Sequence record: PV654397.1
From: Escherichia phage WPEC5
Length of the DNA stretch: 64,000 bases
Strand: one strand, 5' to 3'
Shown: positions 33,982 through 34,719 of the stretch, one piece after another
Layout of the letters: the number at the start of each line of letters is the position of its first letter
Position numbering within the stretch: the first letter of the stretch is position 1
Notes under the pieces: generated by a model
What the model was told of the DNA's origin: nothing
Seen by the model: the letters and a program-made list of their open reading frames with translations, nothing else
Databases searched by the model: none
Program-made: the position numbers and the translations under genes

Positions 33982-34719
33982 ATGTTACCTTTTGCAAGAA
34001 TTGTTAAGTACGGGAATAAAATTGAATATAAGCCACATGGTGAACAATTAATCACGACAATAGGAACAACACAATTTACAGTTCCTGCTGGCGTTACCGA
34101 AATATCAGTATGTGTTATTTCGCCGGGTGGTCAACGCGGTGCTGGTGGCGGCTTATCGTGGCGTAATAATATTCCGGTTTCTGGTGGTGAGTACTTAAGT
34201 GTTTCTCTTACACATCCCAACACTACTACAGCAGTTGAAAACGGTTTATATCGTGGAACTGAAAAACTATGTGTTAGCTTCACTGGTGCATATACGGTTG
34301 GTGGACTAGGTGGAAAAGCTGCTAACGCTATTAATGATGGTGGTGGTAATGGTGGCAACACTGGTTTAAGTGGTGGTGCAGTCATTGGTGGTGGTGCTGG
34401 TGGCTACACTGGTAAAGGTGGTAACGGAAATGCAATCACTGGTGAAAATGGTGCTGGCGGTGGCGGTGGTGGTGGTGCATTCTATAATACCTCGTTCATT
34501 GGTACGGGTGGTGGTACTGGTATCATTGTTCAAGGTGCTAATGGTATTGGTGGTAGCTACGATGGTTCATATAATGGTGGTGCTGGTAGTGGTGGTGCTG
34601 GTAAGAGGTATGGTGGTGGTGGTAGTATATGGGATAATTCTTCTTATACGGCGGCTGGTGGTGGTGCTGTGCGAATAATATGGGGACGTGGGAGATATTA
34701 TCCTAACAATTCAGTCTAA
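33982..34719 (+). CDS. Gly-rich protein with family leader (245 aa)
   Basis: Leader MLPFARIVKYGN, then long GGxGG-type Gly runs instead of RCC1 blades. Confidence 0.7.
   Translation: MLPFARIVKYGNKIEYKPHGEQLITTIGTTQFTVPAGVTEISVCVISPGGQRGAGGGLSWRNNIPVSGGEYLSVSLTHPNTTTAVENGLYRGTEKLCVSFTGAYTVGGLGGKAANAINDGGGNGGNTGLSGGAVIGGGAGGYTGKGGNGNAITGENGAGGGGGGGAFYNTSFIGTGGGTGIIVQGANGIGGSYDGSYNGGAGSGGAGKRYGGGGSIWDNSSYTAAGGGAVRIIWGRGRYYPNNSV

Follow-up and report, generated by a model that had tools for sequence, protein, structure and literature searches.

A glycine-rich protein within an RCC1-like gene array of a jumbo coliphage carries a portable N-terminal leader and may be an interchangeable virion-displayed binding head

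The tail fibre protein gp24 of cyanophage Pam3 consists of an N-terminal helical docking domain, a tumour necrosis factor (TNF)-like domain and a distal glycine-rich lattice, and its variable tips have been proposed to bind receptors (PMC9608196). The Pam3 authors related this architecture to the adhesin gp38 of Salmonella phage S16 and to ALK (PMC9608196; see also PMC13243192); gp38 plugs by its N-terminus onto the fibre tip and determines the host range (PMC9608196, PMC13243192). A second kind of described system concerns the mobility of genes: in T4-type phages, small repeated cassettes of a terminator and a promoter, the promoter-early stem-loops (PeSL), flank non-core genes, which are inserted, deleted or replaced by recombination (PMC2839356, PMC4122927). 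Furthermore, the jumbo phages phAPEC6 and CBB possess unusual hair-like fibres on the tail and the capsid, the protein components of which are unassigned (PMC7247149, PMC5259590). The subject of the present analysis is a glycine-rich gene in an array of RCC1-like genes of Escherichia phage WPEC5 (record PV654397.1), which is located within a stretch of 64,000 nucleotides (nt), referred to as the window. By its sequence, the phage is a jumbo coliphage of the Asteriusvirus type (121Q / PBECO4 / phAPEC6 group). The favoured explanation, which is given a probability of about 0.6, is that the glycine-rich protein is an interchangeable binding head that is displayed on the virion and carries a docking leader at its N-terminus.

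The glycine-rich gene is an intact open reading frame (ORF) at positions 33982-34719 on the plus strand with an ATG start and a TAA stop codon, and its product has 245 amino acids (aa) and a mass of 23.8 kDa. It belongs to an array of 15 plus-strand genes at 26672-44893, the products of which start with MLPF...YGN. The remaining 14 members encode RCC1-like beta-propellers, as seen from matches to the Pfam families RCC1, RCC1_2 and WD40_RLD and to phrog_4219, and both neighbours of the glycine-rich gene are among these paralogs. All 14 RCC1-like genes share the leader consensus MLPF[AV](R/L)(M/L)[VF][KD]YGN. A preliminary description of the locus had stated that the glycine-rich protein starts like its neighbours and ends with GGGAVRIIWGRGRYYPNNSV; the C-terminus was read correctly, and the start, MLPFARIVKYGN, is indeed that of the 14 RCC1-like genes. 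The leader comprises codons 1-12 (33982-34017) and follows the motif M-L-P-F-x-x-h-x-x-Y-(G/A)-N, which begins at the start codon itself. Although pairwise identity among the RCC1 paralogs is only 20-27%, their alignment has 11 invariant columns, seven of which (M1, L2, P3, F4, Y10, G11 and N12) are found in the leader. At the DNA level, the homology between the glycine-rich gene and its neighbours extends from the upstream hairpin to codon 12-13 and then stops, and the junction between leader and body thus lies where it had been suspected. The leader is also set apart in structure predictions: in the AlphaFold2 (AF2) model of the glycine-rich protein, residues 1-10 have a mean predicted local distance difference test (pLDDT) score of 49, and in that of the RCC1-like gene 34792, a propeller of the seven-bladed type with a template modelling (TM) score of 0.80 to UVR8, residues 1-12 exactly make up the N-terminal segment that has a pLDDT below 50 and lacks secondary structure. 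Since residues 1-12 stay below a pLDDT of 50 in both models, the leader does not act as the propeller's closing strand; this 'velcro' function was considered and rejected, as the segment forms no strand and the propeller closes without it.

Proteins with this leader are also found in other phages. A scan of IMG/VR with the pattern ATG-YTN-CCN-TTY-N15-TAY-GGN-AAY yielded clusters that are located almost exclusively on contigs of 348-378 kb. The bodies that follow the leader are RCC1 proteins of 366-396 aa, RCC1+Kelch proteins of 667-676 aa, Kelch proteins of 265-285 aa, Laminin_G_3 or concanavalin A (ConA)-like classes of 212-262 aa, glycine-rich proteins of 244-254 aa and unassigned proteins of 168 and 202 aa. 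Proteins of 352 aa with the start MLPFTPLDGYGN, which are encoded on contigs of 39-72 kb, were rejected as leader proteins, as they are major capsid proteins (PF09950) that match the pattern by chance; they served as the chance control for the scan, and many short ORFs were likewise treated as chance matches. In CBB, a member of the genus Mimasvirus, the proteins CBB_144, 536, 537 and 548-554 all start with MLPF....Y(G/A)N. CBB_144 is a glycine-rich protein with 36% identity to the window protein over the aligned N-terminal 129 residues, and its gene is located outside any RCC1 array. The Eneladusvirus Erwinia phage pEa_SNUABM_47 (L058) contains an array of 11 genes, 565 to 575, which encode RCC1-like, LamG-type and two glycine-rich proteins, all of which start with MLPF. 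Thus, the same leader is not only attached to at least two unrelated bodies, as had been claimed, but by sequence occurs with six or more types of body, in jumbo phages of at least three genera. The RCC1+Kelch proteins of double length, in which an RCC1-like propeller is fused to a Kelch propeller (667-676 aa; jumbo-phage contigs L018:140-2161, L026:6413-8416 and L043:1903-3933 of IMG/VR), further indicate that heads can be concatenated behind a single leader. The array of pEa_SNUABM_47 contains two leader variants, MLPFPIIS.T and MLPF..I.EYGN, which suggests that this single phage has two docking classes.

Outside the window phage, the leader is encoded by CCA, CCT, CCG or CCC, by TTA, TTG or CTT, by TAT or TAC and by GGA, GGG or GGT, and the upstream DNA is unrelated. 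This free synonymous variation, together with the unrelated upstream DNA, argues for selection of the leader as a peptide. On the metagenomic contig L055, a glycine-rich gene and the RCC1 gene that follows it have the leader variant MIPFARIVKYGN in common; the leader therefore co-varies within a genome across body types. Furthermore, the upstream cassette described below is missing from four members of the array in the window, which nevertheless retain the leader. The idea that the leader is an independent module is thus borne out by the breakpoint, the range of bodies, the synonymous variation and the low pLDDT in two models, and the leader is very probably a selected, portable peptide module. 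For motif statistics, 69 non-redundant leaders were used, in which positions 1-4 and 10-12 are fixed by the search pattern. No conserved acidic or protease site was found in these 69 leaders; Glu occurs at position 9 in ten and at position 13 in seven of them, and the leader of the glycine-rich protein itself has no Glu.

A number of leader proteins have been detected in virions by mass spectrometry (MS). In the virion proteome of CBB, 55 of the 554 proteins were identified, among which are CBB_144 (5 peptides, 34% coverage), 536, 537, 548, 549, 551, 552 and 553 (PMC5259590). Leader proteins are thereby strongly enriched in CBB virions, with 8 of 10 detected compared to 47 of the 544 other proteins (Fisher p = 2e-7). 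CBB_144, 536, 537, 551 and 552 are also among the six MS-detected proteins that were singled out by the CBB authors as absent from phage GAP32 (PMC5259590). In phAPEC6, 62 of 551 proteins were identified in the virion, including the array members gp003, 005, 006, 007, 009 and 010, each with a low count of 1-4 peptides (PMC7247149); here, 6 of 8 leader proteins were detected compared to 56 of the 543 others (Fisher p = 4e-5). The RCC1-like protein gp001 of GAP32 is a virion protein as well (PMC5259590), and a 'PE-PGRS family protein' was reported in Eneladusvirus virions (PMC7760394). The latter name is the annotation of gene 566 of pEa_SNUABM_47, a glycine-rich, leader-bearing gene, and is a mislabel driven by composition.

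The structure of the glycine-rich protein was predicted with high confidence (AF2 pLDDT 93.5, predicted TM score 0.89), so the structure prediction called for at the outset returned a confident fold. Glycine accounts for 70 of the 245 residues (28.6%) and for 38.6% of residues 101-245. The preliminary description of a glycine-dominated body is therefore correct as to composition; the glycine-rich stretch, however, comprises about 115-130 aa (residues ~100-228) rather than ~180 aa, and residues 19-100 have an ordinary beta-sandwich sequence. The leader is followed by a short linker, KIEYKP (codons 13-18, 34018-34035), and the family alignment has no conserved columns before G20. The body behind the linker comprises roughly 227 residues. 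A TNF-like beta-sandwich is predicted for residues ~19-110 (34036-34311), to which the last strand, residues 229-245, returns. Between them lies the glycine-rich lattice (residues ~115-228, 34324-34665), which combines a high pLDDT with almost no helix or strand assigned by DSSP, contains near-invariant GGG and GAGG motifs and is covered by the fold matches; it is predicted to consist of extended segments of the polyglycine-II type. The protein ends with a conserved strand (residues 229-234 in the model), the motif GAVRIIWGxGRxxP and the stop codon (34666-34719). Within this motif, W234, G235 and P241 are invariant and R231 and I233 are conserved in at least 90% of the aligned proteins. Residues that are invariant across the family are P35, G137, G141, Y142, G211, W234, G235 and P241, with 35 further near-invariant columns, and all elements of the conserved core, which starts at G20 and reads GQxxFT...VPxGVT...GGGLxWRNNIPV...GGAGGY...GAVRIIWGxGRxFP, are present in the window protein. 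A TNF-like sandwich followed by a glycine-rich lattice is the order of domains in the model, and folds akin to this body are Pam3 gp24, Bxb1 gp33 and gp29 and the glycine-rich domain of ALK. A sequence profile of the glycine-rich family gave no match to PDB chains; the likeness appeared by fold comparison only. Among the viral models in BFVD, Foldseek matched numerous 'glycine-rich domain-containing proteins', which come from uncultured tailed phages and from T4-like cyanophages. Very probably, the body thus has the fold of fibre-tip receptor-binding domains, and the glycine lattice would by analogy be the distal binding end. The 18 residues ahead of the sandwich contain no helix and have pLDDT values of 49-73; a folded N-terminal attachment domain is not present.

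The position of the gene in an array of RCC1-like genes is the sole argument for an explanation raised in the preliminary description as its possible refutation, namely that the gene is a frameshifted or decayed RCC1-like gene with glycine runs produced by reading GGT-rich DNA out of frame. This reading was rejected on the basis of sequence comparisons, profile, fold and selection, and is extremely improbable. When the body (codon 14 onward) was compared with the 14 RCC1 paralogs by blastx in all frames, the best match had only E >= 5.5, and blastn revealed nothing but short matches between GGT runs. The other forward frames of 33982-34719 contain 6 and 27 stops. The ratio of nonsynonymous to synonymous substitution rates (dN/dS) indicates purifying selection, with pairwise values of 0.28 compared to a metagenomic homolog of 62% identity and of 0.55-0.63 compared to near-identical orthologs. 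The profile of phrog_4474 matches residues 1-244 with E = 1.7e-66, which also answers the question for a glycine-rich family; in addition, the predicted fold is confident and thousands of homologs share the core GQQxFT...GAVRIIWG. The ORF is almost certainly a real gene.

A word-indexed search with the glycine-rich protein yielded 189 homologs (E<=1e-3), many of which are annotated as PF21722 (Gly_rich_2). The protein itself has no Pfam match at E <= 1, neither to PF21722 nor to RCC1, and its link to PF21722 exists because homologs match that family, with direct matches for 24 of the 85 aligned homologs. A profile built from the homologs and compared to 1.84 billion representatives matched 6,648 clusters (E <= 1e-3), of which 1,807 reached E <= 1e-30. 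The glycine-rich unit of about 240 residues either forms stand-alone proteins of about 250 aa or is found within larger proteins of 500-5,500 aa, at their C-terminus or as a repeated domain, and the matches usually begin at profile position 9-21, i.e. past the leader. The body is hence a member of a very large phage family without an assigned function (phrog_4474 / PF21722). The context of PVP-SE1 gp19 is uninformative, since it is a lone hypothetical gene amid replication genes. A second short leader class, M-h-E-h-h (e.g., MLELL, MIELL, MFEMM), is found on 32 of 120 homologs of the glycine-rich family. On a 150-kb phage contig of a Plesiomonas metagenome-assembled genome (L048:8134-10744), three successive genes, which lie shortly upstream of those for terminase and portal, start with M.E[LM][LM]: a gene of 221 aa with no known family, a glycine-rich ORF of 274 aa at 9176 that had not been called, and a glycine-rich gene of 247 aa. 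Lineage-specific leaders on one body type may be a general principle.

According to the favoured explanation, the leader would be a portable virion-docking peptide for assembly, which is unstructured in the monomer model and would become ordered upon binding to a common site on the particle. Such a site would allow unrelated heads to be mounted, including RCC1 and Kelch propellers, ConA-like lectin domains and the glycine-rich domain. The glycine-rich protein would then be one alternative, adhesin-like head: its N-terminus, equivalent to the proximal end of Pam3 gp24, would serve as the anchor, and the glycine lattice would point away from the particle. Each head would occupy a fraction of the shared sites, resulting in a displayed repertoire. 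The binding-type folds, the low charge and mostly near-neutral isoelectric point (pI) and the low MS peptide counts fit such a repertoire and disfavour the label 'DNA condensation'. Docking to the virion is considered somewhat more likely than not. A tentative candidate for the mounting site is provided by the hair-like fibres that phAPEC6 and CBB bear on both tail and capsid. A further-reaching proposal, that the MLPF leader is a universal plug of Rak2-like jumbo phages, by which ~10-15 unrelated and rapidly reshuffled heads per genome are mounted on the hair-like fibres, is possible though doubtful.

Several points weigh against the displayed-head explanation. The virion evidence concerns homologs in other phages, CBB_144 and the Eneladusvirus protein, and not the protein of this phage. 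The direct ortholog in phAPEC6 could not have been found by proteomics, because only a fragment of it is annotated: the record (MK817115.1; L002:7325-8059) contains an intact glycine-rich ORF of 244 aa, which is listed merely as a 100-aa fragment, gp004. Moreover, detection by MS cannot separate surface proteins from internal ones. GAP32 carries leader proteins and has no reported hairs, and hairs are therefore not a necessary docking site. A low pLDDT at a short N-terminus is weak evidence for a segment that is disordered until bound, and no fibre chaperone gene was found adjoining the glycine-rich gene, unlike the pair gp24-gp25 of Pam3. Finally, the leaders of the window are more uniform than codon bias would predict: CCT is used in 15/15 (0.32 in the bodies), TTA in 15/15 (0.45) and AGA in 14/14 (0.40). 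This indicates that gene conversion, recent spread of the cassette or a constraint at the nucleotide level operates in addition.

The same uniformity at synonymous sites, together with the direct connection of the leader to the repeated promoter and ribosome-binding site (RBS) cassette, speaks for the explanation that the leader peptide as such is without function and that its conservation results from gene conversion between cassettes and a shared translation-initiation region. This is quite improbable, as four array members retain the leader without the upstream cassette, CBB and other jumbo-phage contigs vary both the codons and the upstream DNA and yet keep M-L-P-F...Y-G/A-N, and the motif persists between proteins of 36% identity (the window protein and CBB_144) and across at least three genera. 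Alternatively, the leader could be a recognition tag for an assembly chaperone or a factor of regulated proteolysis, with the heads attaching via their bodies. Short unstructured N-terminal tags are typical recognition elements, which speaks for this explanation, as does the fact that the glycine-rich fibre tips of Pam3 need chaperones (PMC9608196), while no dedicated chaperone gene adjoins the glycine-rich gene. Each unrelated body would then need a docking surface of its own, so that a common tag and a common site are simpler, and no candidate chaperone was identified; a mere recognition tag is rather improbable.

The main rival explanation is that the leader is a capsid-targeting signal similar to the capsid-targeting sequence (CTS) of T4, by which the proteins would be sent into the prohead core, packaged with the DNA and injected, as effectors or as components of an inner body. 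The architecture corresponds to that of the T4 internal proteins, in which diverse bodies share a short conserved N-terminus (PMC3012670), the leader proteins are virion-associated by MS at an unspecified location, and phAPEC6 possesses an inner body, to which its authors speculated that RCC1 proteins contribute (PMC7247149). A number of observations do not fit this role: there is no conserved protease site at the junction of leader and body, and apart from Glu at position 9 in 10 of 69 leaders no acidic position is conserved; proteins of 24-43 kDa with low charge and a mostly near-neutral pI are unlike small basic proteins embedded in DNA; and the 1-4 peptides per protein in phAPEC6 are too few for a bulk component of the inner body. 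In addition, the glycine-rich body shares its predicted fold with external fibre-tip receptor-binding domains, the other bodies are lectin-like (Laminin_G_3) or propellers, and an RCC1 paralog weakly matches 'tail protein' PHROGs. A capsid-targeting role is therefore regarded as unlikely.

The glycine-rich gene is bracketed by two direct repeats of 140 nt with 81% identity. The upstream repeat (33887-34026, plus strand, repeat family D1) comprises the 3' end of the previous gene, a hairpin, a promoter-like box, the RBS and the leader; the downstream repeat (34697-34836, plus strand) contains a hairpin at 34725-34747, a promoter-like box at 34758-34785 and the leader of the next gene. The upstream hairpin, AAAAGCCAGTACTTGATACTGGCTTTT, is terminator-like, is followed by a T-run and would end the preceding transcription unit (33913-33939, plus strand); in the array, 26 terminator-like sites were counted compared to 8.2 +/- 3.5 in shuffles. 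The AT-rich box with the RBS, ATTAAATATAGTATAATGAATAAAGGAG, is located at 33948-33975 on the plus strand, with AGGAGG 5 nt before the ATG, and is a putative promoter. This 28-nt box, also denoted ATTAAATATAGTATAAT, is present in 8 copies within 3 mismatches, all of which are located inside the array (0 expected by chance). An alignment of 14 array members gave the cassette as the hairpin GCCAGTACT-TGA-TACTGGC, a T-run, ATTAAATATAGTATAATGAATAAAGGAG, the ATG and the 36-nt leader. The box contains TATAAT without a properly spaced -35 element, and a scan for sigma-70 promoters, which yielded 81 sites compared to 101 expected and thus no enrichment, did not pick it up. The cassette box probably drives late, structural genes.

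A stretch of 901 nt with the glycine-rich gene is 95-98% identical to BF17, fEgEco12 and 121Q, among others, and orthologs of the protein with 88-99% identity are found in 17 phage records, including 121Q gp243, which is annotated as 'hypothetical protein'. Of 35 Asteriusvirus records, 17 contain the gene. PBECO4 lacks it; there, the upstream gene has an ortholog that is followed immediately by a different RCC1 gene, and the junction is located inside the same cassette. The MLPF start codon of PBECO4 gp291 (L057:4833) lies 124 nt upstream of the internal start from which the gene is annotated. No record was found that covers at least 80% of a 4.8-kb segment of the array; the paralog at 38317 has counterparts of at least 95% identity in only three genomes, and one array paralog is 100% identical to its fEgEco12 counterpart. 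It is proposed that every head comes as a complete expression cassette, with its own hairpin terminator, promoter-like box, RBS and 36-nt leader, and that homologous recombination between the repeated cassettes inserts, deletes and reshuffles heads. Such recombination would account for the presence of the glycine-rich gene inside the RCC1 array and for the differing array content in close relatives.

Further features of the region were noted. Along the array, the leader alleles ARMVKY and VRMFDY alternate, each with its own fixed codons, and the leader of the last member (43769), MLPFVLLFDYGN, is diverged. The RCC1 paralogs have a low charge and a mostly near-neutral pI (5.1-8.2), which gives no support to the annotation 'DNA condensation protein'. 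Between its last two members, the array is interrupted by a minus-strand ORF of 216 aa (43041-43691), a candidate counterpart and probably the equivalent of 121Q gp233, a hypothetical protein of 219 aa encoded at the array edge on the strand opposite to the 121Q array. Directly upstream of the MLPF array, at ~21965-26565 on the minus strand, lies a second tandem gene family of about 20 paralogous-looking ORFs of 59-78 aa with N-termini M..(K/H)E(Y/F)Y and, in several cases, C-termini ..YREVLKLI..; these correspond to 121Q gp249-265, which are hypothetical genes of ~60 aa. A scan of the window for tRNAs found none.

In public records, array members are labelled 'DNA condensation proteins', 'PE-PGRS family protein' or 'HERC1', names that derive from repeat or composition similarity and are unsupported here. 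The present analysis instead frames the array as a putative family of virion proteins with a shared docking leader and binding-type domains. This makes the leader proteins specific candidates for the hair-like appendages that have remained unexplained in phAPEC6 and CBB, and cassette exchange would explain the mosaic array content among otherwise closely matching genomes, making the array a likely determinant of host range or adsorption. The 18-residue tag might also allow foreign proteins to be displayed on particles of jumbo phages, similar to the use of the T4 capsid-targeting sequence for encapsidation. If the universal-plug proposal were true, it would give the 'hairy' appendages a molecular identity and would constitute a new form of multivalent host recognition, in which one docking peptide serves many heads that are swapped as expression cassettes.

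In comparison with known systems, the small separate protein gp38 of S16 and T2-type phages (~250 aa, polyglycine lattice; PDB 6F45) is the closest working model in concept. The glycine-rich domain of ALK and LTK (PDB 7LRZ, 7LIR, 7NX3), a cytokine-binding ectodomain of metazoans, resembles the body in fold only and has no functional relation to it. A like fold is also present in the 'tail wing brush' protein gp33 and the tail spike gp29 of Bxb1 (PDB 9D93), a mycobacteriophage and siphovirus of Actinobacteria; no MLPF leader is known from Bxb1. Most members of the phrog_4474 / PF21722 family likewise have N-termini other than MLPF. Pam3 gp24 (PDB 7YPX) shares only 16% identity with the glycine-rich protein, docks to the baseplate via an alpha-helical bundle and needs the adjacent chaperone gp25 (PMC9608196), whereas the window protein has a 12-residue leader and a 6-residue linker in place of the helical docking domain and is surrounded by RCC1 neighbours. 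The T4 CTS provides a parallel for the leader. It is removed by the prohead protease after L/I-x-E. Like the MLPF leader, it is a short conserved N-terminal peptide on diverse virion proteins that are encoded at a variable locus (PMC3012670); however, the CTS targets the scaffolding core, whereas the MLPF leader has no conserved cleavage site and its bodies look like external binding domains. As in PeSL, a hairpin and a promoter-like box bracket the glycine-rich gene and mark the insertion or deletion relative to PBECO4, but the window cassette continues beyond the RBS and takes in 36 nt of coding sequence, and its box does not fit the spaced sigma-70 consensus. No account of the MLPF leader was found in the literature that could be searched, and PMC7824862 and the Sharanji paper make no mention of leader proteins; neither was a later virion structure of an Asteriusvirus found. 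What appears to be new is the combination of one leader on at least six body types, mixed arrays that are conserved across the genera Asteriusvirus, Mimasvirus and Eneladusvirus, and cassettes to which the coding leader belongs. Taken as a whole, the body adds a further member to a family that is known but uncharacterised, and the leader system is similar to targeting or anchor peptides already described and to PeSL-mediated shuffling.

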